DNA from: Amphiscolops sp. MND2022
Lineage: Eukaryota
Assembly (NCBI GenBank): GCA_964187785.1
Contig: OZ076409.1
Coordinates: forward strand, 11,348,001 to 11,412,000
Length of the DNA stretch: 64,000 nucleotides
Direction: 5' to 3'
Under the pieces are notes generated by a model, which did no database searches, was not told the origin of the DNA, and saw only the letters and a list, made by a program, of their open reading frames with translations. The position numbers and the translations under genes are program-made. Below, one piece after another: positions 13,257-40,984 of the stretch; position 1 is the stretch's first letter, and each line of letters starts with the position of its first letter.

Positions 13257-13283
13257 TTCTTCTCTTCTTGATTGAACTCAGTT

Positions 13284-13486
13284 CCCAAAGTCACAATAGC
13301 CCAAACTCCCAGAGACACAATAGCCCAATCTCCCAGAGACACAGTAGCCGAATCTCCCAGAGACACAATAGCCCAATCTCCCAGAGACACAGTAGCCCAA
13401 TCTACAGAGACACAGTAGCTCAATCTCCCAGAGACACAATAGCCCAATCTCCCAGAGACACAGTAGCCCAATCTCCCAGAGACACA
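13284..13486. repeat. 24-bp tandem array in the BEL/Pao 5' leader (~8 copies)
   Basis: Unit GAGACACA(A/G)TAGCCCAATCTCCCA repeated head-to-tail; one unit is 23 bp. Confidence 0.95.
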
Positions 13487-13618
13487 AAATCAGCAACTCC
13501 AAGATCCAGACACTTGTTCTTCTTGGGCAATCTTCTCAGTTGTCCACCAACGAGTCGTCTTCTTCTTCTAGTCCGGGTCGTCCACCAACGAGGTGTCCGG
13601 GTCGTCCACCAACGAGTT

Positions 13619-13636
13619 GTCCGGGTCGGCGGACCA
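13619..13636 (-). promoter_or_regulatory. Primer-binding site of BEL/Pao element (tRNA-Tyr-like)
   Basis: TGGTCCGCCGACCCGGAC on the minus strand, 2 nt inside the 5' LTR boundary. Resembles the complement of a tRNA-Tyr 3' end; tRNA identity is inferred. Confidence 0.8.
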
Positions 13637-13638
13637 AA

Positions 13639-14589
13639 TGTAACGGCTGCTTGCCCTTATCCTGCGCTGAGGCTTGACAAACTTTACGCCGCCCTGATCC
13701 GTTGCTTAGTACTGTGGACCGTTACTAAACAAATCCTGGTTTTCTTGTTTTAAAGGACTGTATCTTTTGGCTGGTGGGTCCGATGTGACCCGTGGAATCT
13801 CCTGCGATTCCTCTTTGCACTGATTTGGATCCGATGTGATCCTTAACACACTTCCCTCACAGTATCTTCACGCGCTCCGGCTCTCCAACTATGAGAGTAG
13901 CTACTTAGTCGCTCTAACTCTAGCGAAAAGTTGTGAAGATTGAGAAGTTGATTAATTAGTCTTGCGGTCCTGAGACCCAACTTGACTATAGCTATTCAGT
14001 GGAGAAAATCTCTATCTAATAATGGTATACATATCGTTCACAATTCTACAGTAAATATAAGCAAATATCAGTTGAAATATGTTGTATAAATAAATGACAT
14101 TTAAAGCATAAAATGAAGTTATTGGCTAAGTAAACAAACGATGTGGTGGTTTTGGCATGTTGGTCAGGTGGGGTAAAAGGTATGTTTACACAATGTAAAT
14201 ATCATTAATTTCAACAGAGTTACATTTCCTTCAAGGTCATATGAGAAAATAACATAATAATTAATACATCAAAATTGGGTAATTCATGGGGTCCGACCTA
14301 GGTCACTTTGGGTGTTAATTGCTCGGAACCCAGAGAAGATACGGGGTTCGGTGTTTCGAGTGAAAAGTTAGTGTAGCACCACTACTATACGTGTGCCAAG
14401 TTTCAAGGTGATTGAATGAGTGGTTGACCGGGACGGGGGGGTGGCCCTTTTTTACATAGGGTCATTTTTGCTAAGACTTGTAATTTTCCAACTTAAATCT
14501 TGATAAAGTTTCTAAGTGTTTTGAGTTATAAGTTTCATCAGTCACGTTCGAGTTTGAGTTTCTGATCTCGCAATTGACTGGCGCCAACA
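13639..14589 (-). repeat. 5' LTR of BEL/Pao element
   Basis: Direct repeat of 5976-6927, adjacent to the PBS. Confidence 0.96.
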
Positions 14590-17253: not shown

Positions 17254-17849
17254 CGGGATGCCAAAACCAACAATCGTTATAACTGTTGTCATTTCAATAT
17301 CATTCGGTCATATCAGTAGTAACTAGTCATAGCCAGAGGAGCCAGAGGAGCCAGAGGGAGATACCCCCTCTCCCAGCAGATGACAGACCTTCAGCTAAGC
17401 CAGGAAACAGGGACCACTTCCTTTCCTCAAAAGGTAGGCGGCGAAACAGCTGTGACAGGCCTCCTCATTCCATGATGAGACCACACAATTCACCAAAGTT
17501 CAAATTACTGACGTTCCGAATTTTCTAACAACCCGAATTTTTATCTGGTAAATGAGATCAGCGTGGAAACTTAGTGAACAACCCGAACCTGAGGGAAGCC
17601 CCGTTCGACTGTACCCCTGGCCAATACCCGTCACCAATACCCTTGATCCCCGCAACGTGACCCATGACCCCTTGAGCTTGACTTCGACCCTCCGGAAAGT
17701 ACTCGTAGTGGTAAAACTCGTCGAAGTTGAAAAAGATTCTAAAGAGAAAAATCTATTTTACGGTTCAAGCATTCATGCAAACAATCTTCGTGAAAATGTG
17801 CAAAATCTGATTGATAAAACTTTCCAAGATGAAAACGAATTGATAATCC

Positions 17850-18307
17850 GACAGGACGTCCTAAATAAGAGCCTCTGTAAACATTAAAGCAAGTTTTATC
17901 GTTCTTCATCAGTATTTTACCTAGTAAATGTCAAATAACCTTGAAATATTGCATGAAAGGTCTTTCTAGCCATTGGTTGATTTTGTTTCTAAATATTCAT
18001 AATCGCATCAATCTGACTCTTTTTCATATTCATTTTGCTTCAATTTGTCACGGATTTAGCCGATATTTTGTTGAAATAAGTTATTTAATTCATTGGCTTT
18101 CAGCCAACTTTAGACACCGAATTTTAAAGTTTTACAAGACCGGAAAAATAGAAGAATGAACTAACGGCAAACCCCTGTGAAACGGGGTCTCTATTTCATA
18201 ATAGCGTCATAATAAGAAGTCTCGAACGTTCAATTACTTGAACAAAGATAAGGGGTGAGCATGACTTGGCTTTATACGTTTTCCCGTTTTGCAATACACT
18301 GAGACGT
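17850..18307 (+). repeat. Repeat block B (second copy 34764-35256; diverged relative near 2545-2800)
   Basis: Direct match from GACAGGACGTCCTAAATAA to GCAATACACTGAGACGT. Confidence 0.88.
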
Positions 18308-18453: not shown

Positions 18454-18628
18454 ATGGGAATATTATTTAAAATAAAAATGGGATTAAGATCTAAATGGAA
18501 TAAGATCTAAACTTTCAGGACGGGATTTTAATATTTGAAGTAAAAATGGTATTAAGATCTAAAGAGAATAAGATCTAGAATTTCAGGACGGGATTTTAAT
18601 ATTTAAAGTAAAAATGGGATTAAGATCT
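18454..18628. mobile_element. Left part of a TAAGATCTAAA-repeat foldback MITE split by the env-bearing element (right part 33356-33423)
   Basis: Repeated TAAGATCTAAA units continue after the 3' LTR and end in inverted copies (TTTAGATCTTATTC). Confidence 0.65.
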
Positions 18629-19040
18629 TGTGATGCCATGATGCATGTCCTCAAAGATTCTATAAATCTGAAATACTCTGAACTCTTAACCAAAGTAATT
18701 AGCAGATGTAATCTAATTCGAAAGCTAATTATTCTAGAAGAAACATCATCTAATATATCCTGTACCAAGCTTCCCCGATTCGTCCTGTTGCTGTCACATT
18801 GTTAATTGATGAAACCTACCCTAGTTAATAGAATATATATACACGGAGAAATTGAGAATTCATCCTAGCAATCGGTCTTCCTCCCACACTTCAAGAACTG
18901 AGATCTCAGAGATAGATTGTACTCAGAACTAGCTAGCTACAAGAAAAAAGATAAGACGACTCTGCTGTTAAAATCTTAGACTTCTTATGTCAGTAATAAC
19001 ACTTCTAAAAGAAACCACCACACAACTTTTTAACAGCTCA
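18629..19040 (+). repeat. 5' LTR of env-bearing element
   Basis: TGTGATG...GCTCA; matches 32944-33355 with about 11 substitutions counted by eye. Confidence 0.96.
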
Positions 19041-19042
19041 AT

Positions 19043-19053
19043 TGGTGCGACCG
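19043..19053 (+). promoter_or_regulatory. Primer-binding site (probably truncated)
   Basis: TGGTGCGACCG two nt after the LTR, fused directly to gag-coding sequence. Confidence 0.7.
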
Positions 19054-19990
19054 GCTGGTGTAATGAGAATGCATCCACTATGAACCTCAAATGTAATGAA
19101 ATCTTTACAAAAGGACTTCCAAAAAACCTTAAAGTCTTTGCAAATAAAAGGCAAGTAAAACACACTTCCACTGTTCTAGAACCTTCAATTCCTTTTCATA
19201 CATTAGTAAAACTTGTTGACGCTGAAGATATTGCAAACGACAAAATCAGAACACATGATCTTGCACTTGAAATTAACAATATTACAAAACAATTGAACAC
19301 TCAAACTCTTGACCCCTCATCTCAAGAGCAACTTATGTATACACAACCCAAAGACCCGAATAACAAAAATAAACCTGCATACAAAAAATATTGCTCATAC
19401 TGTCATAGAACAAATCATTCCATTTCTGCTTGTTTCAAAAAACAACGAGATGATGAAGATAAACGAGAAGCATATGCTCGATCAAAATCTCCACAAAAAT
19501 CATTCGTTCAGTACTTTCGTTCTCCTTCCAATGATAGAACAAATTACTATGATAATCGATACCGAAGTCGAAGTACTTCACGAGACAATTCTTACAACAA
19601 AAATTATTCACAAAACCGATACCGTTCTACATCTCGCGATGGAGATAGATTTCGTTACGACAAAAGTACTACTCCTCCACACTACTCTAGATCAAAATAT
19701 GATACATACAAACGTGATTCTCGGTCTTACCGTTCTCCTTACAGATCTTCTTATAGATCCCCATATCGACAAAACTCTCGTCCTAGATACAGATCACGCT
19801 CCTATTCAAGAGACAACAAATTCACAAAGTACACAAATTCATATAGACCACCATCAAGACCAAGAGACTCTAGATTTTCTAGATCCCGCTCACACTCCAA
19901 TTCCAAAAATAAAATCAATATGATACAACAACAAGACCAAACTGACCCTGTAAAATTTGAAGTACACATGTATCACCCAACAGCAATGGC
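19054..19990 (+). pseudogene. gag: C-terminal part of gag: single CCHC knuckle and Arg/Ser/Tyr-rich tail
   Basis: CSYCHRTNHSISAC at 19392-19433 followed by RS-rich repeats, in frame with protease LDSGAS. The N-terminus is apparently deleted. Confidence 0.85.
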
Positions 19991-22900
19991 AAATGCTGTC
20001 ACACCTACAAGTTGGTTTTATACACTATATGTACATACACCATCAAGTATAGTACAAAGAGACAACCCATCCCGATTAGAAATTGCATTCCTCCTAGATA
20101 GCGGTGCTTCCATTTCTGTACTCAATTACCCAACATATAACTCTTACAAAACTTCTAGATATCAGATCAAATCACACCTCTGATGTTGAACCAACTCGAA
20201 ATTCCAAAACATTAACTGTTGCAAACCAAACTGAAGTTCCTATTTTACATTATGCAAATATAATTTTGAACACCACTATTGATGAAAACTCTCGTTACTT
20301 TTCAGTACCTTTCGCAGTAGCTGATATCAAATACAACATCCTTGGCACACCATTCTTTGAAGACAATATACAAAACATAAACATACAAGACTTTACACTC
20401 GAATTTAAATACCAATCAAAAACACACCCAAGTTATGCAAAGTTCACAACACTCCTATCTAAAGATTATCCATATTTCTCTTACATTTATAGAATTAATT
20501 CAAAAACTCAAATACGTCTAAAACCCAAGTCTTCAAAAATTGCACACTTTCCAATTAAAAATTATCATAATCTTCATTTTACAACTGCACCACAAAACCA
20601 CTTCTTTCCTTCAGTACCTCATACCTATTTTGCTACCAAATTTCGTACAACTTTCAATTTCATTGAAGTATTTACAGATGACAAGCCAGACATTTGTGCA
20701 ACTATTATTCAGAACACTTCAAAACATGTTGCAACCCTGCCTACAGGACATATTGGATACATTGATGTTCCAATTACTAATGAAAAACCTAAATTCTTCC
20801 AAGTTAACGACATTAACACTTTAATACATAATGTTACTCATACTTATCATCCTGATATTACAGAACCACTTCCACAAACTAACTATATTGTACAATATGA
20901 TGATCCTACAACCCCTCCTCCTCAATTCTCTCTACATCAAATTTATATGACAAATAACGACATTCCAAATCAAACTTCTCCTTTATATAACGTTCAACCT
21001 ACTTCTCACACTTCCGAAAAACGCATTTTCCCTTCTCTACCATATACTTCTGAAAATCTGAAACTTAATAATAAATTTAACTTCCAATTTTCTGACCTTA
21101 CAGATACAGAATACATTACTCTTTGCAATATGTTACTCAAGTATAAAACATGTTATGCAACTCATAAAAACGACGTTGGAAAAATTTCAACACCATTTCG
21201 TATACGACTTAAACCAAATGCTCAACTTATGACACAACGTCCTTCCAAAGTCCCTATTCACTACCGAGACAAACTTAACGTACTTCTCAAAGAACTCGAA
21301 AAATATAACATTATCAAACAAATAGGTTCCTCTCCTCAAGACAAACCCGTTTATGGCACAACTTATTTAAACCCTCTCATTATAATCCCAAAGGGAGATT
21401 CAATAAAATGTGTATTAGACGCTCGACACCTTAACTCCAATACAGAACAATCTGATGAATCTTGGCCTATTGAACCTCTTGCTCCACAACTAGCACGCGC
21501 AAATAAGAAGTACAAATCTGCTATTGACCTTATGTATGCCTATGCACATACACCTCTTGACGAAGACACTATAAAACTTACTAGTTTCTCTTCCGGAGAT
21601 AAACTTTTCGCTTTTATCCGAGGCTTTTATGGTCTCAAAGGACTACCAAACTTCTTTACAAAACAAATGTCTACTTTCTTTAAAACTCTTATACAACAAG
21701 GTTTCGCTCTTGTCTACATTGACGATATATTACTTTTATCTGATTCTAAAGAACACATGTTCCAACTCATAGAACAACTACACATTATTAGTACAAAAAA
21801 CAATCTTAAACTAGCCCCTGAAAAATCCTTTTTCATGCTTCTTAAAGTCAAATTCCTTGGACATGAAATTGGTTACAATACAATTAAACCAATACATTCA
21901 AAAATTGCAGCTATCCATAAAATCCCTTCTCCAACTGGCAAAGTTGCCCTATTGAGTTTCATTGGCGCACTCAATTTTTACACCAAATTTATTGAAAAAC
22001 TACATATTAACCTCAAACCATTTTACGATCTTTTACATGAAAACACTCCTTGGAAATGGACAGACGAACACGAAAGTCTATTCCAAAAACCCAAAATGTC
22101 TCTCACTTCTGAAACAGAATTAACAATACCAAATACAAAACATCCATTTTTCATTACATTTGACGCTTCCCTTAATGGTTTAGGCGCTGTCTTATTCCAA
22201 TTAAATGACCAAAACAAAATGAAAGTCATATCGTACAACTCTCGTATACTTAATCCACAAGAACAAAAACTCTCCACACTTGATAGAGAACTTCTTGGTA
22301 TAGTACACGCACTTCAAATCTATGAATTTCTCATCATAGGTTCTCCCCATCCAATACACATTTTTACTGATCACAAACCTTTATTACATTGTTTTACAAA
22401 GAAAGGTAATCTCAGTCCTCGTTTCTACAGAGCTCAAATGCAATTGACAAAGTTTTCAAAACTCAAAATAATTCACACTCCTGGAAAAAATCTCTCTGTT
22501 GCCGATATGTTAAGTCGCTCCTTCACAAAAGCTGAATTACAACTAAACCAGTTAAAACATAAACACCTCCCACCACAAATCGATTTTGCACTTCTACAAG
22601 ACAACACTCTTAAACCTGTACATTACTTAATTAAACATGAAGAAATTTTACCTCATCAAAAACATGACTCTGATCCAATTCTCGCTGATTATGGTACAGA
22701 TCAATTCTCTATTCGTATCAATGATAAAGGAAATGACATTGTTGTCAAACCATTACAATCCTTCTCATTCAAATCTATAACTTTTTTTCAAACTAAGTTC
22801 AAGACACCAATAAAAAAGAACAATAAAACCCTTCATCAACAATCTCTCTTACTTAATGATACTGACGTTACAAGTGATGACGAAGATCATATATACACCA

Positions 22901-24960
22901 GAATTCCAAAATCTGACTCTTCCTTCTTACAAGACACAACATTACAAACAGAAAATTATTCTACTCTTGAACAACCAACTCACACTACCTCACAAAAATC
23001 AGTTTCTGCAATAAATGTACAACCCAATATACCCTCTCTAACACACTGTCAACAAAATATACCTTTCTATGATACATCATTTTTTAAGTACAAAATTTAT
23101 TTTCAAGGTTTCTTCCTTACTCATTAGACATAAAAAAACTTCAACAACAACAATCCCAAGATCCGGTTCTTAGAACTGTTTATTCTTGGTTATTAAACAA
23201 TGAAAAACACGAATTTGTAACACCTCTTAGTACTGGTACTCCATTTTTACATGTATATTACAAAAGATTTTCACAACTTTTCATCATCCACAAATCTTAT
23301 TAGTCTATATATTACAAACCCTACTGTTATAAACCAATCCTCTACTCCAAATTTTGTATAAGACACTATTCGTATATGCCTTCCTTTTCGACTGTTCAAA
23401 ACTGTCTTTAACAAACTCCATGAACACTCTCATACTGGTATGAAAATTACATACAATACATTCAAACAATATTACTACATTCCATTTCTTGAAAAATGGC
23501 TTTCCATTTTCATACATGACCGTATTGAATGTCAACGTAACAAACACTTCAATATGATTTTTCGAACTGCTCCTACACAATCATTTTCAGAACATGCTCC
23601 ATCTTTCAACTATCGAATTTCAATGGACACTAAAGGACCTATTAATCCTCCTTCTCACAATAAATCCTATATACATGTAATTATTGACGCTTTTAGTCAC
23701 TTTGTTGTTACAGTACCCATTAAATCAAACAACGCAAAGACTGCTATCAAAACTCTCCTACACCATTGGATTATTAAATTTGGACCACCTATATATCTTG
23801 TCACTGATGGTGGATCAGAATATGTTAATAAAGAAATGGCACACCTTTGCACACTTATGGGAATTCGTCATTCTCCTAGAACAGCTTACTCTCCTTGGAC
23901 AAATGGCCTTGTTGAAGTACAAAACAGAAATCTTGGTACCCATCTACGAATGTTCTTACATGACACACCTAAAGATTGGGCATTCTAAGTCCATATGTAC
24001 GCTTATGCACATAATTCACAACCACTTTCAGAACTCAATATTTCACCTCACGAAATTGTTTTCCACACCCGACCCAGAATACCCCTTACATTTGATTTGA
24101 ACCTTAACCGAGACACCTCTAAAACATGTATTTCACGATATTGCTCTCAACTTCCAGCACACTCCCATTATGATTAATCAGATTTAAACCCATTTTTCAA
24201 TAAAACCCTTTCAAAACCCATTCCCCAATGGTTTCTCGCTGTAGAAACTGCTATGTTACAAATTTATTCTACAGTATACGAAAACACCCTACGAAAAATC
24301 AATTCACAAGCATACATTACAAAAACTTACCATGAAGGTAAACCCCTTCCTATTGGTACCTTTGTTTTAAAACGCAATTTTACACATGTTCATTTTTCTG
24401 ACAAACTCAAACCCCTTCGGATTGGACCATACAATATTCTTGATAGATTATCAGATGTTACATATGAACTACTTGCACAAGATGGCTCTACAGTACACGT
24501 CCATAGAAATCATTTAATCCCATATTATCCAAAAGAACCACTCGTATAACCACATCTGCGTAGTTTTATGCGCTTTTCAGATACAACTCAATTCCATATT
24601 CCACAACCTACCAAATATGCAAACAGTGATTCTTCCCCTTTTAATTCAGACGAATCCTTGTCAGAAGAAGATTCTCAAACATTTGTAACGCCACCATCAT
24701 TTAGTACATCCAATCAAAATACACCATCTATAACATCCAATGACAAGTCTTTGACTCCCTCAACCAATGACAACTCCTTATATAGACATATAATTAATAC
24801 CCCTCACACTAATGTCTCTAGTGACAGATCAAGACACTCATCTAATAACCAAACAACTTCACTTCCTCCTCTAATTGACAGAACCACAAAAACTACTTAT
24901 AAACTACGACAACAACCCCAATTAGATTATAGACTTTTTATTACACCCTCAAAACTGTAA
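19991..24960 (+). pseudogene. pol: pol: protease, RT, RNase H, integrase with GPY/F module
   Basis: LDSGAS; SAIDLMYAY / GFYGL / YIDD; DAS / RELLG / TDHKPL / ADMLSR; HEHSH..CQ, MDTKGP, TDGGSEY, NGLVE, IGPY. Frameshifts near 20137, ~23120 and ~23285, and several stops. Confidence 0.95.
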
Positions 24961-25046
24961 TCCTATCATTCTATCCGCTGGCTCACTCAAAACTAGTCAC
25001 TCCAGTTGAATGAAATATAACCCATAACAAGTTATCTCAAAGATAA

Positions 25047-26285
25047 CCTGTTGAAAATACTTCAACAATCCTGGATCCTCCCTCTGATATACCTCCATCA
25101 GCTCCAAGTATTCCTTCCACACCTGAATCTTCAGTATCAAGCACTACAAACTCTAGTAATGTAACTCCTACTACTCCTTCTAAAAGATCAAGATCATACA
25201 TCTCTGAAACTACCTCTTCATCACTTCTTCATAGACCACCTATAACTGAAATCCCTATAAACACCCGTACTCAACAAACTCCTATTAACACTCCTATTAT
25301 ACACATACCAAATCCTGAAAGTGTTGAACAATACGTTACCTACAAACATCCTACAGCTATCAAAACTGTTAGACTACAACCTCAACTTAATCTTGTACAA
25401 ATCCCTGATACTGAATATACAAAGCTACCTTCACTGAAATTACCATCAGAACTTAGCACTACTTCTTCAAAACTTTATCCACCATTAAAACCTCTTCGAA
25501 AACCTTCTACATCACTCTCAAATCTCTTAGACAATACTTCAGACTACGCTTCATCACAAGACACAAGCTCACTTTTTGTACCTAAACATCGATATAATCT
25601 TCGTGACCTCCCTTCACGTAGACTTAGTACAGACACTTCAACACTCAATTTTTCCGCTCTTTCTAGCAATTCTGCACTACGACTTGTACGACAACACGCT
25701 CAACCATTGTCCTCTGACACACCATCTTCAGAACTCTTCCAATCTCCTTATTTTACTTCTGGTTTTGAAACCGCTTCATTACTCTCATCTAACCCTCAGA
25801 CTGCATTTTTATCAGGAGACCTTTTTTCAGAAGTAGTAATCCCTACTCCTGTTCCTGCACATATTCGACTACCCGAATACTATACTGCAGAACACTCTAG
25901 ATCCCCAACTCCAAATTTTGCTGACTATCCACTTAGAGTCGATGGTATAACCATCTACGACCCACAAAACGATCCCCGATTTCCAATTCTTGCAGAACGT
26001 TTCATTAATTACAACGACCTCTTATCTCACAAACGCAAAGAAACAGAACTAAAACGCCTTCAGACATCAAACCTAGAACTTAAACTTGAAGTCAAAGTCA
26101 AATTTCAAGGATTAAATCCACACCCAATATTTCACGTTTCTAAAATAGAACATAAAACCTCTCCTGCTCCTTTTGAAGTAGTACATATTGAATTTGAACG
26201 CGATCTTAATATACCCACTATCACCTATGGCAACATTGTCTTCTGTAACCCATATTCCGGTCTTAAATATACAACATCTTTTTAA
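25047..26285 (+). CDS. ATG-less 412-codon stop-free frame between pol and env (Ser/Thr/Pro-rich N-part, unknown function)
   Basis: Manual translation shows the frame of ORF 25707..26285 stays open back to a TAA at 25044-25046. It contains PPSAP. Confidence 0.65.
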   Translation, partial: PVENTSTILDPPSDIPPSAPSIPSTPESSVSSTTNSSNVTPTTPSKRSRSYISETTSSSLLHRPPITEIPINTRTQQTPINTPIIHIPNPESVEQYVTYKHPTAIKTVRLQPQLNLVQIPDTEYTKLPSLKLPSELSTTSSKLYPPLKPLRKPSTSLSNLLDNTSDYASSQDTSSLFVPKHRYNLRDLPSRRLSTDTSTLNFSALSSNSALRLVRQHAQPLSSDTPSSELFQSPYFTSGFETASLLSSNPQTAFLSGDLFSEVVIPTPVPAHIRLPEYYTAEHSRSPTPNFADYPLRVDGITIYDPQNDPRFPILAERFINYNDLLSHKRKETELKRLQTSNLELKLEVKVKFQGLNPHPIFHVSKIEHKTSPAPFEVVHIEFERDLNIPTITYGNIVFCNPYSGLKYTTSF

Positions 26286-28970
26286 ACCCTACACAACCTT
26301 TTACATAACAAATCTAATACTTTATTTACATTTATTCAACTCTACCTTTTCCATACCCATAACACCCTCTGACACAGAAAACTATCTTCCATCGGATGAC
26401 CCAAATATTACAAATCTCATGGTTTCTCATTATGACTGTGCAAAACAACACAATCTGAGACAATTTAATCTACTTTATGTAAAACAATGCACTGAAGCTC
26501 CTTCCGACATTAAACATGCCAGTGTTAAAGCCCGTGTATATGTCCGAGCAAAAGCTAATCGTATCAAAGCTTTCAAATGTGTTGCTTATGCAAAGAAAGA
26601 AAGGAAAATATGCTTTCAAGGTTCCGTAAAATACCGTCGTGTTGATAGAACCGTATGGAATCATAATACATTACCACTCCCTGTTACTCTTGATCCAGTA
26701 GAATGTAAAAACATTATAAGACATTTAAATGGTACAAATGATAAAATATTGAACAACCTTCAATACAACAAAACTTTTACACTCTTAGAAGATCATTATT
26801 TTAAAGAACGTTTAGAACAATATCAAACTCCTTTCACTGTATATCAACTGAACAAAATGTATACAGGTACATTTACATTTATGCCTGCTGATAAAAACTG
26901 GATATATGACCCTACTCAAAACCCTTATCATAACTGTCCTGCTCATCACCAATTTGAAGTCAACTTAGTTAGTTGGCGACTAGAAATTTCTGAAGTAGAA
27001 CTTACATATGATGAGCGACTAGAAATTTCTGAAGTGGAACTTACATATGATGACACATCTAATGACATGATAATCGATGGACATACATTACCCTGCTACT
27101 TTGCAGATGGTTTCTGTAAACCCACTACAAAAACCCCTTTTACTCTTGTTTGGTTCAATGATGACTATTGTCTAATTTTTACCTTACAAGACTTTATTGG
27201 CCGTATGACTAAAATTGAAGATAGATATTGGATTGAAACAGACTCTTTTGTACATTCTCCACACCCAATAATATCTAAACCAGCTTCTGGTACGAAGGTA
27301 CAGAATATCCCTATGTTTATGCTCCTCATACACAACATCCAAATAACCCAAGTCTTTCAAGATTTGAAGTTTTTCCTACAGCACAAACCTTTTGTGGTAA
27401 ACCAGACCCTCTCTATTCTACACAATATTCAGACTTTTTGTTACCTACACTGATGGTTTCAATATGCATACAGGACAACCCAATCCTCATTCCATGATTG
27501 ATGAATATATTTCTGGTAAAATAGTATTGGACACTTCAAATAACAAATTTGTATTCCCTGCATTAAATGTATCAAACAATTTTGCTACTATTGATTATGA
27601 TGCGCATATAAACACCAAACTAGATTATACTATTAATCATGTTTTTAGATCAATGACAGTACAAGAACTAAATACCCTTCATACAATATGTGAACTAGAA
27701 CGTAACCAACTCCTTACAATACTCGCAATGTCAGTACAAAACCCTCAACTTGCTGGTTTCCTTTTAACCGGTAATAGAAGTAATTTCTTATACGTTGAAG
27801 GCTCAACCGCCTGGCTTTACGACTGTCCTCATTTTTTATCTCTTTTATACAAAGCAGATAGATGCTTTGACCGTATACCCATACATTTTAAAGATACCTT
27901 AATGTACGTTGATCCTATTACAAGACAAACTTATGATTATGCTACACCAATTACATGTGATAATAATCCACGTAACATTATTGAACTAGACCCTGATTCA
28001 GACGACCAAGACTTTTACATTCTTGGACCTGAACCTATTAAACGCAAACCACCACTAATGTTTACACCTTCACAAATCAAAACTACAAAACGCCCTAATA
28101 CTTTTACAGCCCAAGATGCTGGTATATATTCAAATGCAGAACTTGACAAATTTTGGAACCGTATTTTATTTTCTAAACATTCTGATTCTACACTCCAATT
28201 AATAGGCAAAGCTCTTAGTTATTCCTTCATTTCATCTAATACTCCAAATTACGATGCAGATTCCCCTCAAGACTCTGGCAATCCTTACAACACATTACGT
28301 ATAGGACTCCATGATAAACTCTTGAATTTAACTCCTCTTTTTACACCTACATGGTTTTTAGATGCTTTTATTGCACTTTTTGGATACCCTTGTTACATTC
28401 TCACACAATGTGGTATATACTTTTCTACATTTCTTTTCGTACAAGCTACTCTTACACTCTGTCAAACTTTACAAAACAATATCTATTAAATATAATCTCA
28501 AAAATAATATTACTTTATTTAGTTCTATAGCACATGGTTTTTTTAATGTTCTTACAGCACGAATGGTCAGTCACCTCCATGAGACTCAAAACAAAAAACC
28601 TAAAAGTAAACTTTTAAAATCCAAATCCTTAGATAATTTTATTGACACTTCTCCAAATTTAATTAACCATTCTACAGATGTTACTTCCCCTCCACCTTTC
28701 TACACTAAACGTCCTAACAAAATTCAATTTCCTAAATTTAATTTGTTTCCGAAACGACACCACAATTCCCACCAAAAAACATCTACACTTCCTTTCTCTC
28801 CTGTTCAACATCCTCCACTTCCTAATTATACTCATAAAAACTTTCACTCGAATGACAATTTAACTACTCAACATGACACTTTAATTAACAATCCTGTCAC
28901 TTGTACTACGGATACACCAATTAAAATCTATTCACGGATAAACTATCCTTTTCCTCCTCCATCTTCTTGA
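26227..28970 (+). pseudogene. env: Envelope glycoprotein, class III fusogen-like (herpesvirus gB / chuvirus G type), frameshifted
   Basis: ATG at 26227, hydrophobic signal-like stretch, YDC..C start, many Cys and N-x-S/T sequons, CELER...NPQLAGFLL...WLYDC...CFDRIP core, C-terminal hydrophobic segment and tail. Split over ORFs 26188-27453, 27464-28489 and 28362-28970. Confidence 0.85.
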
Positions 28971-29179
28971 ACACTCTTTCTGTTTTTCTGTAACTCTCTT
29001 CCAGAACACTTGTATACTATCTCTTCACAATTGCTACTCCTCCACCGCTCGAAACCCTTGCAGAAGTTGATCTTCCTCAGCCCAATAATACATCTCTCAT
29101 AATAACCGTCTTCAAAAACTCTTCAACTAAAGTTGATAAATCCACTCGTTAGTGTAGTTTATAGTACTTTCACTTCAAA

Positions 29180-30880
29180 GTGATAAGGCCTCTTGGAATA
29201 GATAACACTGTTGTTGTTGATGATAACATTGTTGATGTTTTTAAACACACCATGACACAAGCACAAATTGATCTACAAACACAGCTTGAACAAGCAACCC
29301 CAACAGATCTTATAACTAGACATCTTTCAAATGATTCTTCTGTTCTCTATATTGAGACTTCTGAACAAACACCTCCATCTTTTCTCGAACAAATGGAACA
29401 CACAAAAGCTGAACACGAAAGTTCAAAACCTACTCCTTCCCAAGATGATACTGATCATACACAACCGACACCACCTACTCCAAAAAAAACGATATGAGAT
29501 TATGAAAGATCCAATCTTTCTTTCGTCACCAGTATATCTTCCTTCAATACCTTCAAAAATTTCACTGTGCACAAATCGTGATGATCATTTGATCCCAATC
29601 CTTTCTACAGACGATTTCGTCTTTAAAGCACAGCTAACTTCTCTATATATGCATCCTACTGACTATTCATTTCGCTTATATGACAAAAATCAAGACTTCT
29701 TTACATCCATTGCCTCCAAAATAATGGGTCCATACCAATATTGGCTCGATAATGGAGTTAAATATTTCTCTCTCCAATTCAATTTTCTTCGACCGTCTAT
29801 CTACGATCTCAAAACAGATGAATCTGATCCATCTTTTCTATCTATAGCACAAAAAGCTACTCATCATCAAACATATACTAAATTCCTGCAATACACGAAA
29901 CCACAAAATCACATTTTTGTCAATTACAAATATACTTCAAAGTGATTGTAATTTGATTCAATTTGTAATTTTGTCAATTACAAATATACATCACCGTTCA
30001 CAATGACAAATATGTACACTCTGGACCACTCCTGTATAACAGGCTACCTTCGAAACTATGACCCTATAAAACAATACTTCTGTTTGCTTCCATACAACAA
30101 TACTTCACGCCCACTTATTGTACCTCAAGTATATCTCATACATTACGATGATTTTTTGTTGCCTTGCAACATTCCTACTCAAATTGCCAAACCTCTTACT
30201 GTTATTAAACACCTAGTATCTTTTCCCCTTGACGATAAAGATAGAACGTACTATACAGCACTCTACAAGCAAACGTATTCCTACAATGAACTTCTCTTCA
30301 TATCTGCCAAAACTATCTCTTTCATGGTACAAGCTGAACAAAAAACTGAACATAAATCACACGCTTCACCTATAAAAAACGCTCCTGACAAACTTTCCTC
30401 TGTATTAAACAACCGAGCACTTCGCGACATAATAAATTTACTTGATCCCTATAAACGAAACTCCTCTGAAACACCTATCACAACACTCACACATATACTA
30501 CACTGCTATGACAGAACACACAAACTCCTTCAATTTAGACTCTCAACGCATCACTCAATCATCCCAAGCAATTCAATCTGCTTTGGAAACTATAACTACC
30601 CTTTTTAACTCAACTAATCTTCATTAAACTCTTATACAGGTAATATAAAGTTTTTAATTTTTCTTCTCTGGTACTTTCTATGATCCATCTTTGGCACAAT
30701 ATCAAAGGTATTTTTACTTTTGCTTACTTTTTTAAAATTAAAATCTTTCTTCTGAATGAAATCTCAGGACTATCTTTCACGTATAATATTCTTTCCTACA
30801 GCACATGTCAAACAGATAACTACTTCTATCAAAAAACAACTACAATACAAGACATACAAAACAATATAGCACAACACTAA
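29180..30880 (+). pseudogene. Post-env accessory ORF(s), frameshifted, unknown function
   Basis: Consecutive overlapping + strand ORFs (29180-29497, 29331-29945, 30003-30608, 30442-30627, 30680-30880) inside the LTRs, with the element's codon bias. Confidence 0.55.
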
Positions 30881-31048
30881 ATATGATACATTCCAGCTCC
30901 AAATTTTGTTGTACATCTTTGACTTGATATTGACATTTTTCTTACACTTCCTCTGTTTTAGAAACATCTATTCTTCCTCCTCCTTCATCCAAATTCTTTC
31001 AGAACATCCCAACTTCTCTTTCTTCGCATTCTTCCAACCCTCGTCATC

Positions 31049-31497
31049 ATGGCTCCATATGCTGAAACAAACGACATTATCACTATGACCTCAGAGTTTT
31101 CAAAAGTGCATAGTCTCAAAGCCGCCATATTTCACACCATGGCATTCAAACTCTCGCTTGAAATTCACAAAAACAAAACTACGCCAAAATGTCTCATCGC
31201 TTTCTTAAAAGTCCTCTACAATGTCAGATAAAAAAGAAAAAAATTACTTTTGAGCAATACTCGCGGATCCATCTTCAAGGACCTAAAATTGCCATTTGCG
31301 AAACGGCATCTAATGTTGTATTCGTCCTAAATTCTTCCTTTACTTCAAAGGATCAGTATTTTCGTACTGCTCTCCACGAAGCCACTGACGCTTTTAATAA
31401 TATGCTGAAAGATTTCGGGTATACTCAGAAATTAGAACTCTATGACCCGATCCCACACCAAACTCATCCTCCATCGCAAAACTCTCTCTTTCAATAA
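31049..31497 (+). pseudogene. Second post-env accessory ORF (~150 aa, one frameshift)
   Basis: MAPYAETND... and ...ITFEQYSRIHLQGPK... join across an A-run near 31230-31243. Confidence 0.5.
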
Positions 31498-31722
31498 TCT
31501 CTATAACACAAACTTCTACTTACTTCTATTTCACTCTTCAACTGCATTTCGTCTCCAAATCCTTCATCTTTCTTCGATGATGCATTGAAATGTGGTTGCT
31601 GATCACTCCTCCAAAGAACTTCTCCTACACATGCTGACACTCTTCACTTCACCCATCCACGATGGTCAACAACATCCATCTCCACTTTGGGTTCATCGAC
31701 GTTGCCAACCTTTGTCCTCGTC

Positions 31723-31827
31723 ACTGGTCTTCACTCCACGATGACTTCTTGACTGGTCTTCATATCTCAGATGCTGACTTCTTGACTGGTCTTCACACCT
31801 CAAATGCTGACTTCTTGACTGGTATTC
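31723..31827 (+). repeat. 33-bp tandem repeat (~2.5-3 copies) in the 3' untranslated region
   Basis: TGACTTCTTGACTGGTCTTCA.A.CTCA.ATGC units starting at 31742, 31775 and 31808. Confidence 0.85.
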
Positions 31828-32943
31828 GTACTCCAATGGACTATACTCCAAATTTCAAACATTGTACTCCAAACTTGACTCAATTTTCAAACTGAACTAT
31901 ATAATCCATTTTAACAAATATAACTTGTAACTTATTGTAACCTATTTTAATCAACTTATAACTTTAATACCGTGTAGTGCTATATACTCTTATCTAATCC
32001 TTAGTGCTATATACTCTTATCTAATTTTAATCTTTTGTAATCGTATTATAATTACCCCTCTGTTTCAAAATCCCCAAAAAATTTCTACCGATAATTATCT
32101 TTGTAACCACAATATTATCTGCTTCTATTGTCTTGTGTATAGTACATTGATATAATCTTATCTAATTATTTTGTTATATCTAAAATACACTTCAAAAATA
32201 TATCTCTAATACCCATCTTTTACAGAACACAAGTCCTACCTACAGCACAAGAAATTTTCTAAGATTTTTGGACAAAAATTTTTCTTTTACAAAACATGTT
32301 CTCCACCTTTGTTTTAATCCCCAAAAGCATTCCCAAAAATTTTCCAAATTTTTCTTTACAACTGTTAAAAAATGTCACTTCTCGTTTTCTACTGTTTGAA
32401 ACTTGAAATTGCCAAAGTTTTTTTTTCAACTTTTGCCTCTGCTCTATTCTTCACTTTCGTTGAAAATGAACTCTCACTCGAACCTTGACTTTTCGAAACT
32501 TCTTCACTTTTGGTTCACATACCCGCCAATGTTGGTTCACAACTCATTGACAACTTCACACTTTAATTCTTCAACTTGAAAAGTTTTCAATGCTGACTAA
32601 GTCATGTTGATGAAAGAATTTTTTCAAACAAGCCGATGGCTGATACGAAAAAGGAAACATGAAATGATGAATAGTTGTCAACAATAACTTCATAAGAACT
32701 TGTCAGTTAAAGAAACTGAAAGAACTTGAACCTTGCTTGAACCTTTTTGCACCAATTGAATCGTTTATGACGTAAGAAGTCAAATAGTCTTAGGTTGTTC
32801 TCACTCCTTAAGTATGGTACTCTACAAAACGAAACTCATGCAACTCTAGTACAACACATATGAAACAAACCCATGCATATAACAAAAAACTCCTCAAACC
32901 CAAAGTGCGTATATGTAATTTTATTTTTAAATTCCCGGTTTAT

Positions 32944-33355
32944 TGTGATGCCATGATGCATGTCCTCAAAGATTCTCTAAATCTGAAATACTCTGAACTC
33001 TTAACCAAAGTAATTAGCAGATGTAATCTAATTTGAAAGCTAATTATTCTAGAAGAAACTTCATCTAATATATCCTGTACCAAGCTTCCCCGATTCATCC
33101 TGTTGCTGTCACATTGTTAATTGATGAAACCTACCCTAGTTAATAGAATATATCTACTCGGAGAAATTGAGAATTCATCCTAGCAATCGGTCTTCCTCCC
33201 ACACTTCAAGAGCTGAGATCTCAGAGATAGATTGTACTCAGAACTAGCTATGTACAAGATAAAAGATAAGACGACTCTGCTGTTAAAATCTTAGACTTCT
33301 TATGTCAGTAATAACACTTCTAAAAGAAACCATCACACAACTTTTTAACAGCTCA
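32944..33355 (+). repeat. 3' LTR of env-bearing element
   Basis: Direct repeat of 18629-19040, followed by TSD ATCT. Confidence 0.96.
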
Positions 33356-33498
33356 ATCTAAAAGGAATAAGATCTAAAACCACTAAAATTTAGATCTTAT
33401 TCTTTAGATCCTATTCCCCTCCCAAAATAGCTATGGCTCAAGTGATGAAGGCGAAAAGGGAGGAAAATATCCCGGTGCTTAGGTGGCGTCTTGTTCGT

Positions 33499-34746
33499 TA
33501 TGAACAGTCTTCTTTATGAAACTCGAGAGCAAAAATTGAAACAACCCGATAGGACCATGTTTCTTAACCACCCCCCCCCCTCTCTCTCCTTATAACTTGT
33601 TTCTTATATCCTCAACACGAAGACCACTTTTTCTTCTTGGAAAAAGTTTTGCACGCATCAAAATATATACCCTGATTTTCTTTACTTTTGAAATAGCAAT
33701 ATTTCAGACCTGTAAGAAACTGAAATCGTCTATAAATGCCAACATTTCAACGCCTAGGTATACGCTATGAAATGAATTCAACCTTTTCAACCGTGAATCA
33801 ATGTAATAGGTAGGGTTATGTCGACATCAAATATTTTATTAGAGTGAATATACATCCCAAACGATGTCGCCGTAATGGTATTTGAAGCCTGTTCTTTATT
33901 CCCACCTGCGGTCGCTTGGGGGATGAAAAACATGGTCCACCGAATATAATAAAATGATAGTCTTGATTGAGCATTGACACAGGAATGAATGAAGTAATTT
34001 AACGCAGCGACACAAACAAACATGATTTCAAGTATGGATCACAAAAAATTTTACGGAATCTTTGGCTTTAGACAATGCACCATGGTCTTGTTTTGGAAAC
34101 CCTTTATTGCAAAAACCCAGCAATTATTGTTGAAAAAGCATTTGATCACGATTGCCATATGCTTAATCGTATGATTATCAGCTCCGCAAAAGACCATACA
34201 GACAAGAATATTGTTATAGGGCAGGAACGCTGGTGATTACGACTATTTGATCCCATGTATCAACGACTTCGATTCATATTTTGATTAGTGATCAAAATCG
34301 ATAGAATATAATTCAAAGCAGAAATTGATTTAATAGTTCAGTTTTTGTCTATCAAATTCGATTACAACAATTGCAAACTAATATAGTACATTGTAAACTA
34401 ATATCGTAAACTGTGCTCTTTGAAGTTGTGAAACTGCAGAATGACAGATTGTAGAATCAAACAACTTAAAAGTTCAGCTCCCTTCGAGTCGGAGACTTTC
34501 GGAAAAGTTTGCAGTGAATAAGAAATTTATGAACTTCGAACTGCCGATTATTACAATTTACTTCGCAGTTCAAAAATGCCGATTCGTCTGATTCACTTGA
34601 CTTTCCATATTCTTTGATTCAACTGAAATTTGAAATAAAAACTTCATTTTTCCAGTTTTATTATCTTTGAAAAATGAAAGATTTTAGTTCTAGGCCAAAA
34701 ACTTGTTCTTTTTTCAAATTATTTCTGCTTAAAACTTCTAGATTGC
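33499..34746 (+). repeat. Repeat block A, first copy (second copy 35264-36565)
   Basis: Colinear match from TATGAACAGTCTTCT to CTAGATTGC. Confidence 0.92.
33552..33938. mobile_element. GGACCATGT-TIR MITE (duplicate at 35317-35741)
   Basis: GGACCATGTTT / AAACATGGTCC termini; flanks ACCCGATA / ACCGAATA. Confidence 0.72.
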
Positions 34747-35263
34747 CAATCTGACGAAAATCTGACAGGACGTCCTAAATAACAGCTTCTGTAAACATTA
34801 AAGCAAGTTTTATCGTGCCTCGTCAGTAATTTACCTAGTAAATGTCAAATAACTTTCAAATGGAAAGGTCTTGCATGAAAGGTCTTTCTAGCCATTGGTT
34901 GATTTTGTTTCTAAATATTCATAATCGTATATTGTTCATTGGCCTGCCAAACGCATCAATCTGACTCTTTTTCATATTCATTTTGCTTCAATTTGTCACG
35001 GATTTAGCCGATATTCTGTTGAAATAAATTATTTACTTCATTGGTTTTCAGCCAATTTTAGACACCGAATTCTAAAGTTTTACAAGACCGGAAAAATAGA
35101 AGAATGAACTAACGACAAAGCCCTGTGAAACGGGGTCTCTATTTCATAATAGCGCAGACACCAGATTTCTCGAACGTTCAATTACTTGAACAAAGATGAG
35201 GGGTGAGCATGACTTGGCTTCAGACGTTTTTCCCGTTTTGCAATACACTGAGACGTAATTCAA

Positions 35264-35350
35264 TATGAACAGTCTTCTTAATGAAACTCGAGAGCAGAAA
35301 TTGAAACAACCCGATAGGACCATGTTTCTTAACCACCCCCCCCCCCCCTT

Positions 35351-35392
<42 letters not shown>

Positions 35393-36565
35393 TATAACTT
35401 GTTTCTTATATCCTCAACACGAAGACCACTTTTTCTTCTTGGAAAAAGTTTTGCGCGCATGAAAAAATATACCTTGATTTTCCTTTATTTTTGAAATAGG
35501 AACATTTCAAGCATGAAAGAAACTGAAATCGTCTATAAATGCCAACATTTCAACGCCTAGGTATACGCTATGAAACGAATTCAACCTTTTAAACAGTGAA
35601 TCAATTTAATAGGTAGTGTTATGTCGACATCAAATATTTTATTAGAGTGAACTTACATCGCAAGCGATGTCGCCGTAAAGGTATTTGAACCTTGTTCTTT
35701 ATTCCCACCTGCAGTCGCTTGGGGGATGAAAAACATGGTCCACCGAATATAATAAAATGATAGTCTTGATTGAGCATTGACACAGGAATGAATGAAGTAA
35801 TTTAACGCAGCGACACAAACAAACATGATTTCAAGTATGGATCACAAAAAATTTTACGGAATCTTTGGCTTTAGACAATGCACCATGGTCTTGTTTTGGA
35901 AACCCTTTATTGAAAAAACCCAGCAATTAATGTTGAAAAAGCATTTGATCACGATTGCCATATGCTTAATCGTGTGATTATCAGCTCCGCAAAAGAATAT
36001 ACAGACAAGAATATTGTTATAGGGCAGAAACGACTTTGATTCATATTTTGATTAGTGATCAAAATCGATAGAATATAATTCAAAGCAGAAGTTGATTTAA
36101 TAGGTCAGTTTTTGTCTATCGAATTCGATTACAATAATTGCAAAGTAATATAGTACATTGTAAACTAATATCGTAAATTGTGCTCTTTGAAGTTGTGAAA
36201 TTGCAGAATGACAGATTGTAGAATCAAACAACTTAAAAGTTCAGCTCGCTTCGAGTCGGAGACTTTCGGAAAAGTTTGCAGTGAATTAGAAATTTATGAA
36301 CTTCGAACTGCCGATTATTACAATTTACTTCGCAGTTCAAAAATGCTGATTCGTCTGATTCACTTGACTTTTCCATATTCTCCGATTCAACAGAAAGTTG
36401 AAAAATCTGTAATTTGAAAACCTTCATTTTTCTAGTTTTCTTATATAAAAAAAACTAGAAAAATGAAGGTTTTCAGATATCTTTGAAAAATGAAAAAATT
36501 TAGTTTTAGAATAACTTCTTTTTACTATTTTTTCAATTAGTTTCTACTGAAAACATCTAGATTGC
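35264..36565 (+). repeat. Repeat block A, second copy, with expanded (CT)n at ~35355-35391
   Basis: Direct match to 33499-34746 with indels. Confidence 0.92.
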
Positions 36566-39812: not shown

Positions 39813-40733
39813 TCATTTCTTCAACTTCAGGGAATAGTTTTTTCCTCCATTGTTGTCCCAAAATTCCCCATAAGCACTCGTGAACTTGACACAAAAGTTG
39901 ACCTCGCTGCTGGAAATCTCGGACGCCTTGCAGTGAATTTCGAATCGAAATTGGTCGTATATTTGAAGCACGTTGTTTTCTGGGAAATGAGCCGAAGTGA
40001 CGTCACGGAAACTGTTCCAATTATCGGTAGTGTATCTCACCGTAACTTCTTTCTGTGCGCCCAAATTCACAACAGCAACCATCCCAACTATCATGGTGCC
40101 ATACGTCTTTATATTGGCCACCACAACCTTTTGCAGGTCCAGTTTGGGCTGTCTTCTGTTCAGTTCTACCCTGGGCAGGTAAACTGGGATGAAACTTCGC
40201 ATTCCACGAAGTGACGTAATAAGTATTTCACGCTCGTTTTCGTGATCGTAATCTTCGTAATCCGATGACTCATTACCACCTAGTTCGTCCAGGTTTTCAA
40301 TCGTCTTGACGAGTTCCAAGTTCTTGCCACAGTCGTCGGCAAAAACGACTCGCTTCTTTTTCAAACACTTCGGGTCCGACTTTCCAGCTTTGAGTGAATC
40401 AGTCGAAGAGCGTGATCGTTTGAGAGATCTTTTGCAGCAAACTTTTGCCCGTCTTTTGCTTTTGGGTGTTGCAGGTTCGCACAATTTCGAGTCATTTTTG
40501 ATCGAATTTGACCTCAAGGTCAAAGATTCAGCAGGTTCCGCGTGTAGTTTCGTCAGCTCCACGACTAGTTGAAGGGGAATTGTGCTGAGTAATTTTGGAC
40601 CAATAAATTCATTAGACGGGCATCGTTTGCGGAATAAAAGCGATTCGAAAGACGTGGTTGCGTGAAGAACGTCTGAAAGTGACATATCTTTGTCGCGCTG
40701 GGACGTTTTTTTGTGCTTCTTGTTTTCGTCTGT
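39813..40733 (-). CDS. PPP1R3: Last coding exon of glycogen-targeting protein phosphatase 1 regulatory subunit (PPP1R3 family, CBM21)
   Basis: KKKRVVFAD (RVxF), VVNLGAQKEVTVRYTTDNW and FWDNNGGKNY motifs. Phase-0 acceptor TTTTGCTTTATTTCAG ends at 40734. Confidence 0.92.
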   Translation of the reverse strand, partial: TDENKKHKKTSQRDKDMSLSDVLHATTSFESLLFRKRCPSNEFIGPKLLSTIPLQLVVELTKLHAEPAESLTLRSNSIKNDSKLCEPATPKSKRRAKVCCKRSLKRSRSSTDSLKAGKSDPKCLKKKRVVFADDCGKNLELVKTIENLDELGGNESSDYEDYDHENEREILITSLRGMRSFIPVYLPRVELNRRQPKLDLQKVVVANIKTYGTMIVGMVAVVNLGAQKEVTVRYTTDNWNSFRDVTSAHFPENNVLQIYDQFRFEIHCKASEISSSEVNFCVKFTSAYGEFWDNNGGKNYSLKLKK

Positions 40734-40984
40734 CTGAAATAAAGCAAAAGTACAATCAACATATTGATAGCTTGAAATAAATAGCTTGCATATTGCAATA
40801 AAAAAACTCAATTGTTTTTGTACGTTTGTTGCTTATAAACGTTAGCACCGACGCTCCATTTTAAGATCTAAGTTCTATGTAGGTTTGGAATGAACTCCGA
40901 GTAAAAGTTGAATATTTAACTCGGATTTTATAATTTTTTCAGTAAGAAACATTTATCTTTTTGTACGTTTCTTTTCACTGCAAA

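Follow-up and report, generated by a model that had tools for sequence, protein, structure and literature searches.

Gypsy-type long terminal repeat (LTR) elements with an envelope protein related in fold to herpesvirus glycoprotein B (gB) are described across Metazoa in sections of a recent survey (Chary & Hayashi, eLife 2026, PMC13524379). According to the same sections, 114 elements from four groups of arthropods have a chuvirus-like glycoprotein adjoining the gypsy POL, several near-identical intact copies per genome are typical, and the survey sought three open reading frames (ORFs) only. Parts of Dezordi et al. 2020 (PMC7642597) describe BEL/Pao elements of mosquitoes with a captured Chuviridae glycoprotein, which were named 'Anakin', and passages in Dezordi et al. 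2023 (PMC10084718) mention LTR-gypsy fragments adjoining such glycoproteins in Hymenoptera and other insects. As far as these passages go, the literature is split on the origin of the gene: Dezordi et al. 2020 favor capture, whereas Chary & Hayashi favor an ancient association that co-diverges with pol. The gene studied here lies in a 64,000-nucleotide stretch of the genome of Amphiscolops sp. MND2022 (contig OZ076409.1), hereafter the window, at positions 26227-28970 of the + strand. Very probably it is an env gene that has been inactivated and that belongs to a dead copy, 14.7 kb long (18629-33355), of an endogenous retrovirus-like element of the Ty3/gypsy type, and it encodes a chuvirus-like Env with a gB fold. 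Gypsy elements with a gB-fold, chuvirus-like ENV are a published kind, and the env described here adds one family to it.

The env gene is split over four frame pieces, and its start at 26227 and stop at 28970 are exact. In the ORF list it corresponds to four overlapping stop-to-stop frames of the + strand (26182-28970). A preliminary description of the locus, made from the sequence without database searches, had quoted several peptide strings of the protein, and all of them are found on the + strand of the window. The frame of 26182-27453 encodes the string SHYDCAKQHNLRQFNLLYVKQC, the shifted frame 27279-27497 encodes TFCGKPDPLYSTQY, and 27401-28489 encodes ICELERNQLLTILAMSVQNPQLAGFLLTG...AWLYDC...RCFDRIPI...YVDPITR...PITC with the hydrophobic anchor. 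Three env peptide strings were not found in the supplementary files of PMC13524379. A search of a collection of 5.8 billion proteins with the longest env piece (27401-28489, 362 amino acids) yielded 1667 candidates, 16 of which were longer proteins at E<=0.001. The best of these, P0001, is an intact env paralogue of 901 amino acids that is 95% identical to this piece and stands for a cluster with 1758 members.

P0001 aligns to the window by tblastn in four collinear pieces of the + strand. Residues 1-348 correspond to 26227-27312 in frame 1 (86% identity), residues 338-392 to 27279-27443 in frame 3 (80%), residues 390-739 to 27434-28483 in frame 2 (95%), and residues 733-901 to 28461-28967 in frame 3 (91%). 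The frame changes fall within 27279-27312, 27434-27443, and 28461-28483. Because the pieces are collinear, the gene has three frame breaks with the start and stop proposed in the preliminary description; the bounds agree exactly with the P0001 alignment, and the frameshifts placed there at ~27295, ~27438, and ~28460 are matched by the piece borders. A 39-bp tandem duplication in env, which adds 13 codons in frame at 26976-27053, had been overlooked (Tandem Repeats Finder: period 39, 2.0 copies, 97% matches; a gap in tblastn). Residues 444-488 of P0001, which form the long central helix and include C475, E476, and R479, are encoded at 27596-27730, as placed by the model helix, the conserved columns, and the tblastn register. 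The hydrophobic membrane anchor (P0001 ~697-732) is encoded at 28355-28462, as read from the sequence, helix 706-745 of the model, and the tblastn register; a single C-terminal transmembrane anchor after the ectodomain, as in class III proteins, is thereby present. The motif PPFY, a late-domain-like motif of the PPxY type in the cytoplasmic tail of Env, is encoded at 28692-28703 (tblastn, motif scan).

By sequence profile, PF24664 (Monjiviricetes_fusion) is the only Pfam family above the cut-off for env. The window piece 27401-28489 scores 75.1 bits (E 3.9e-21) and the intact paralogue P0001 83.2 bits, where the curated gathering cut-off is 27 bits (whole-protein hidden Markov model score); the N-terminal env piece of the window alone scores 14.9 bits, under the cut-off. 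HMMER, run exhaustively over 1.84 billion cluster representatives, matched 1445 of them to env at E<=0.001, 142 of these at E<=1e-30; by sequence the match is far beyond chance. An alignment of 24 full-length env relatives (A1) contains invariant cysteines and a nearly invariant C475-E476-x-x-R479, which is followed by an AG(F/Y)LLTGNRS block. These three helix residues are the most conserved part of the env family, and they are the 'CE..R' central-helix pattern that the preliminary description had recognized as typical of class III fusogens. The glycoproteins of Jingchuvirales/Monjiviricetes share with this env the PF24664 membership, the best predicted-structure matches, the nearly invariant cysteines, and the central-helix motif. 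In contrast to them, the env is DNA-encoded in a retroelement, and it is only 32-36% identical to the nearest relatives found on short contigs of viral size. A viral-contig search with the env alignment gave 7 pattern matches, 0 of which were confirmed by tblastn.

A structural model was built of P0001, a natural intact paralogue, and not of the broken window copy, with A1 as the alignment. Its confident blocks comprise residues 59-128, 242-324, 365-395, and 444-600, and residues 444-488 form a helix of 45 residues. At E<=0.001, Foldseek found 96 matches in the PDB, and all of the matches listed are herpesvirus gB, namely from herpes simplex virus (HSV)-1/2, varicella-zoster virus, human cytomegalovirus, human herpesvirus 6B, and pseudorabies virus (best E 1.4e-11). 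Foldseek against BFVD placed glycoproteins of chu-like and chu-related viruses at the top (E 7.7e-29 to 1.7e-26), followed by Xinmo-, qin-, and rhabdo-like G proteins and then by gB. The structural comparison proposed in the preliminary description thus returns gB as best in the PDB and chu-like glycoproteins as best in BFVD. VIA-align, applied to the Foldseek candidates, gave gB a Z of 11.7 over 392 residues (model residues 66-642), domain IV of pseudorabies gB alone a Z of 8.8 (root-mean-square deviation 3.7 A, 165/187 residues), and the rhabdovirus G proteins of Mokola and rabies virus a Z of 8.0-8.1. The nearest clusters in the ESM Atlas are, in order, PF24664, gB, and rhabdovirus G. The elongated multi-domain fold, the beta-rich fusion domain, the long central helix, and the crown domain of class III proteins are all seen on this moderate-confidence model.

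The interpretation of Env as a class III-type, chuvirus-like glycoprotein is supported because profile, fold, and language-model features agree, the fold being that of a predicted structure. Several results weigh against it. The P0001 model has a mean predicted local distance difference test score (pLDDT) of 58.6 and a predicted template-modeling score (pTM) of 0.35, which is moderate whole-model confidence, and its global TM-scores to gB in the PDB are low (0.20-0.32, Foldseek). Pfam PF00606 (Glycoprotein_B) has no match at E<=1 for P0001, P0010, and P0015. A PDB sequence search with the env piece gave only three chance-level matches at E>=0.095 (tRNA synthetase, ribosomal protein) and no gB or G, and one with the 24-sequence env profile gave no matches. 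The low TM-scores arise because the domain orientations and the disordered tail fail to superpose, so the fold match depends on agreement at the level of domains; and since the PDB sequence searches and Pfam Glycoprotein_B gave no match, the kinship of env with gB is structural only. The env protein is gB-like by fold and is not a member of the gB family by sequence. With herpesvirus gB it shares the predicted domain plan, with its crown domain IV and long central helix, whereas sequence similarity is not detectable, identity in structural alignments is ~10-13%, and no gH/gL partners are evident. The class III, gB/chuvirus-like Env of the preliminary description is borne out by PF24664, Foldseek, VIA-align, BFVD, and the ESM Atlas; profile and fold similarity are both present, and the best match is never a cellular protein, so the outcomes that it had named as contrary are absent.

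The element that carries env is delimited by direct repeats at 18628-19042 and 32943-33357, which are 97.3% identical over 415 bp in a blastn self-comparison of the window. With the ends read at base level, the 5' LTR (412 bp, TG...CA) occupies 18629-19040 and the 3' LTR 32944-33355, and target-site duplications ATCT lie at 18625-18628 and 33356-33359, all on the + strand. The primer-binding site begins with TGG, two bases past the 5' LTR (19043-19052, by alignment to a full-length comparison copy of the same family), and is cut by an internal deletion at 19052/19053. No tRNA 3' end complementary to it was found in the genome with three IUPAC patterns, two of them built on the deletion-truncated primer-binding site of the window. 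A gag-protease remnant at 19053-20562 retains the C-terminal part only, with a CCHC knuckle, an R/S-rich region, and a DSG protease motif; it is matched by residues 234-595 of the comparison-copy ORF1 in frame 3 and 595-737 in frame 1 (tblastn), with a frame break near 20136. The pol gene (20566-24957) encodes reverse transcriptase (RT), RNase H, and integrase of the Ty3/gypsy type (Pfam RVT_1, RT_RNaseH, RT_RNaseH_2, rve, and Integrase_H2C2), carries 8 in-frame stops, and is 91% identical in amino acids to the open 1469-aa pol of the comparison copy. Three further frames surround env. ORFx (25047-26285) is an open accessory frame of 412 codons, none of which is Met, and its last 59 nt overlap the start of env in a different frame (ORF list, tblastn). 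ORFy (29240-30624; 449 aa when open) is a remnant in which the frame is broken twice and two in-frame stops occur near 29943-29951, and ORFz (30989-31494; 179 aa when open) is a remnant with one frame break and a weaker case as a gene (both by tblastn).

All genes of the element lie on the + strand, and a strong C-over-G skew is common to the whole element, env included. Two LTRs, a target-site duplication, a primer-binding site, and a gypsy-type gag-pol followed by env on the same strand, the features of an env-bearing Ty3/gypsy element, are all present, and the domains found in the element family are RVT_1, RT_RNaseH, RT_RNaseH_2, rve, Integrase_H2C2, SH3_Tf2-1, and Retrotrans_gag. Judged by these Pfam domains, the backbone is Ty3/gypsy and not BEL/Pao, because Peptidase_A17, DUF1759, and DUF5641 are absent from the element and all three are matched in a BEL/Pao element of the window. 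Compared with Anakin as described in PMC7642597, the same glycoprotein family serves as env of an LTR retroelement and has been amplified by retrotransposition; the difference is that the Anakin backbone is BEL/Pao. Compared with the errantiviruses with HSV/gB-type ENV in the relevant parts of PMC13524379, the plan of an LTR element with a gypsy-type gag-pol and then a gB-fold ENV is alike, whereas the family here has a length of 18.1 kb, a gag ORF of ~1264 aa, and two or three extra conserved ORFs around env. The element was inserted in a 68-bp tandem repeat (18461-18596), and both of its flanks belong to another repeat (17842-18307 and 34756-35256, 87% identical, 16.9 kb apart). A ~1.8-kb tandem duplication (33499-36403, 95-98% identical) lies downstream of it.

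The window copy has lost 3.35 kb right after the first bases of the primer-binding site, comprising the leader and ~760 N-terminal gag codons with the capsid-like domain. Its alignment covers 920-1351 of comparison locus L011 (LTR and first primer-binding-site bases) and resumes 3.35 kb further on, at L009:700; the deleted part includes the Retrotrans_gag domain (L009 ORF1 residues 161-233). Among 40 scored LTR-end matches, 39 end at the deletion junction and the remaining one comes from the window, so the deletion is private to the window copy. Its defects comprise the gag deletion with one frame break, eight stops in pol, three frame breaks in env, two breaks and two stops in ORFy, and one break in ORFz; ORFx is still open. 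With three frame breaks and a duplication in env, the capsid half of gag lost, and eight stops in pol, the window copy is nonfunctional: it is incapable of Env function and is a dead relic.

The rest of the family was studied in the 1.07-Gb genome assembly (1929 contigs). Searching it in six frames with P0001 returned 11,875 first-look env candidates, and the 50 scored copies are all full-length and 98-99% identical to P0001, 49 of them without a stop. The comparison copy is one full-length member pieced from three loci (L009, L010, and L011). It measures 18.1 kb, which places it among the larger animal LTR elements, and has 421-bp LTRs that are 99.5% identical and six open frames. These are a gag-protease of ~1264 aa with Retrotrans_gag (L011 2420-4000 and L009 1-2214), a pol of 1469 aa after a single in-frame stop from gag, ORFx of 418 aa (L009 6726-7982), env of 901 aa, ORFy of 449 aa (L010 1870-3219), and ORFz of 179 aa. 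In the gag-protease of full-length copies, the N-terminal ~290 residues are without a family match and a long Q/P/S/T-rich linker precedes the capsid-like domain. The window copy is of an older or different subfamily, because it is 91% identical to the comparison copy in DNA and the LTRs are 87% identical. Between these two copies, the ratio of non-synonymous to synonymous substitution rates (dN/dS, Nei-Gojobori) is 0.09 for gag, 0.13 for pol, 0.04-0.17 for env, 0.076 for ORFx, 0.079 for ORFy, and 0.047 for ORFz (90 codons only). Purifying selection acts in the element family.

A second env family (P0010 type) occurs in the same genome. Its env is 53% identical to P0001 overall, and 29 of its 50 scored copies are without a stop. 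One copy (L012/L013, C4:590200-609000) has the same gene order and a fused gag-pol of 2497 aa, where gag and pol of the P0001 family are separated by one in-frame stop; its pol is 59% identical. It also contains an ORFx homologue (L012 8498-9931, 36% identity, E 6e-39) and an ORFy homologue (L013 2974-4557, 43% identity, E 2e-66). The ORF at the position of ORFz is unlike ORFz (BLASTP E 22), and ORFz is therefore left out of the shared accessory genes. The element family is large, very abundant, more gene-rich than published descriptions, and apparently recently active, and accessory genes such as these would escape surveys that seek three ORFs only.

Other explanations of the env gene concern its class and its attachment to the element. 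Most known insect errantiviruses have an F-type env according to parts of PMC13524379, and a protein of class I (of the retroviral type, or of the F type seen in Drosophila gypsy) or of class II (like that of phleboviruses) might have been misread as class III. This is contradicted by Pfam, where no F-type, retroviral TM, or phlebovirus glycoprotein family appears even at E<=1, and by the fold searches, where the top matches are all class III proteins; its probability is close to nil, and the statement in the preliminary description that Env is not of the retroviral type agrees with the PF24664 match. It is scarcely more probable that env is a stand-alone endogenous viral element, that is, a chance-integrated or host-domesticated chuvirus G that merely lies between two LTRs. 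Solo chuvirus glycoprotein insertions are indeed reported for mosquito genomes in parts of PMC7642597. The env here, however, lies on the same strand as gag-pol and within one LTR pair with matching 4-bp duplications, has the C-over-G skew of the element, takes the same position in the full-length comparison copy and in the second diverged family, and has been amplified with the element to thousands of candidate copies.

The origin of the association is a more balanced matter. Capture of the env gene from a virus, as suggested in the preliminary description, is plausible, and we infer that the gene arose by exchange with a negative-strand RNA virus. Env is matched best in structure by the glycoproteins of named exogenous chu-like viruses, and Negarnaviricota predominate in the Pfam family and in the nearest ESM Atlas clusters. 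Phylogenetic nesting in mosquitoes led to the inference of capture in the corresponding part of Dezordi et al. 2020 (PMC7642597). Against capture from a chuvirus, the gene may be an ancient part of env-bearing gypsy elements that co-diverges with pol, or negative-strand RNA viruses may have taken it from retroelements. Sections of Chary & Hayashi (PMC13524379) find gB-type ENV largely co-diverging with POL and argue for an ancient association. The two families of this genome differ in every gene and retain the same gene order, with pol 59% and env 53% identical, which fits long joint descent, and the low identity to the nearest relatives on virus-sized contigs points in the same direction. We regard this explanation as a serious contender, although the less probable one.

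Movement from cell to cell has been shown for gypsy-type errantiviruses of Drosophila. In the family described here, Env is a type I membrane glycoprotein. It has a hydrophobic signal or anchor at the N-terminus, combines beta-rich domains with a long central helix and a crown domain like that of gB, and has at its C-terminal end a membrane anchor and a proline-rich tail of ~155 residues with PPxY. Intact Env presumably forms a trimer on the membrane and would fuse the envelope of gag-pol particles with a neighboring cell, and such fusion could allow the element to move between cells.

The cytoplasmic tail differs in length and motif from those of the virus-like relatives: it has ~155 residues with PPxY, whereas theirs have ~70-110 residues with YPxL and/or P(T/S)AP. 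PPxY occurs in the tails of the retroelement Envs P0001, P0002, P0009, and P0010, and the motif type varies between clades of A1. At least one of PPxY, YPxL, and P[TS]AP is carried by 15 of the 24 A1 tails, where composition-preserving shuffles expect 1.6, the sequences being related and not 24 independent trials. The much longer ectodomains of the 24 proteins contain only 4 occurrences of such motifs in all. This distribution of sequence motifs suggests that Env itself may recruit the ESCRT budding machinery in this glycoprotein family. To our knowledge, chuviruses have no recognized matrix protein; if true, the enrichment of late domains in the tails would be a lead on chuvirus budding. Literature searches, too limited to show that the point is unpublished, found no late domains described for the glycoproteins of chuviruses or the Env tails of retroelements. 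A part of PMC6394706 discusses late domains in other lispivirus proteins, not in G.

ORFx and ORFy are conserved accessory genes of the element lineage, as judged by their sequences, because they have homologues in two diverged families, low dN/dS, and database relatives. The relatives number 248 for ORFx and 268 for ORFy, and full-length open frames persist down to ~60-70% identity; both genes are kept across two families that are only 36-59% identical. Pfam has no family for ORFx, ORFy, ORFz, the N-terminal half of gag, or the second-family counterparts. PDB sequence searches with ORFy (profile) and ORFx gave nothing below E 0.47, the ESM Atlas gave no usable match for ORFy, and an AlphaFold2 model of ORFy from a 22-row alignment was unusable (mean pLDDT 33.9).

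ORFx is without a Met codon in the window copy, the comparison copy, and the second family. Among 120 listed ORFx relatives, internal Met makes up 0.093% of residues (35/37,603) and 95 have none, whereas it makes up 1.69% in ORFy relatives. From the start of the ORFx frame to the env ATG, past which ORFx extends by 59 nt in the other frame, the P0001 family has 2 ATG triplets over 1198 nt and the second family 1 over 1438 nt. Base shuffles expect 10.5 and 9.5 and are as low in 1/1000 and 0/1000, whereas synonymous-codon shuffles expect only 4.5 and 1.7 and are as low in 150/2000 and 794/2000. The paucity of ATG is thus mainly a matter of protein composition, chiefly the absence of Met, and selection at silent sites as its cause is not supported, since synonymous-codon shuffles are often as low. 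Pyrimidine tracts ending in AG, which resemble splice acceptors, occur before ORFx and after the env stop, and they are uninformative because the whole strand is pyrimidine-rich.

The start of ORFx may be supplied by an upstream exon or by a non-AUG codon, and scanning ribosomes could pass through the AUG-poor stretch to the env AUG. In HIV-1, vpu/env is a parallel for leaky scanning among reverse-transcribing viruses. ORFx and Env could in this way be made from one spliced bicistronic mRNA with a non-AUG or exon-supplied start and leaky scanning, like HIV-1 vpu/env and the ORFs of rice tungro bacilliform virus. For the latter, leaky scanning via AUG-free upstream ORFs is shown for ORFs I-III in parts of PMC5902531. 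The likeness to ORF I/II of that virus is that ORFx, a long Met-free frame directly upstream of env, overlaps the start of env in a different frame and that the 1.2-1.4 kb it spans has very few ATG triplets in any frame in both diverged families; the difference is that its ATG paucity is mostly protein composition and that the proposal is made by analogy. Alternatively, a spliced ORFx-Env fusion would place the ectodomain between two membrane segments, an arrangement that a passage in Chary & Hayashi (PMC13524379) mentions for some gB-type ENVs. Returning to the bicistronic arrangement, the Met-free ORFx over the env start offers a testable hypothesis for multi-protein expression by a non-retroviral 'complex retrovirus'. 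The broader proposal assigns the decayed window copy to a 'complex' family of endogenous retroviruses outside Retroviridae that looks recently active and is perhaps still active, with accessory genes under strong purifying selection, a bicistronic ORFx/Env mRNA, and an ESCRT-recruiting Env; it is tentative and in its entirety rather unlikely.

The window contains other repeats and frames. The BEL/Pao LTR element at 5976-14589 on the - strand has 952-bp LTRs that are 99.4% identical and looks young, and no env was seen in it; one open gag-pol frame of 2133 aa at 6876-13277 (Peptidase_A17, DUF1759, DUF5641, RVT_1, and rve) served as the positive control for the backbone assignment. A second BEL/Pao-like gag region (DUF1759, zinc knuckle) with four consecutive ORFs occupies 60731-64000 and runs past the window end. 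Direct repeats of ~1.5 kb at 41429-42978 and 44977-46581 are 98-99% identical, lie 3.5 kb apart, and possibly belong to a large-LTR or tandem element. The ORFs between them (43922-44985) have no Pfam match, and a 93-bp piece recurs inverted at 46830-46922. An open frame on the - strand at 39813-40832 carries a CBM_21 carbohydrate-binding domain (E 6.4e-25) and is probably an exon of a host gene, which we presume may encode a glycogen-targeting phosphatase subunit.

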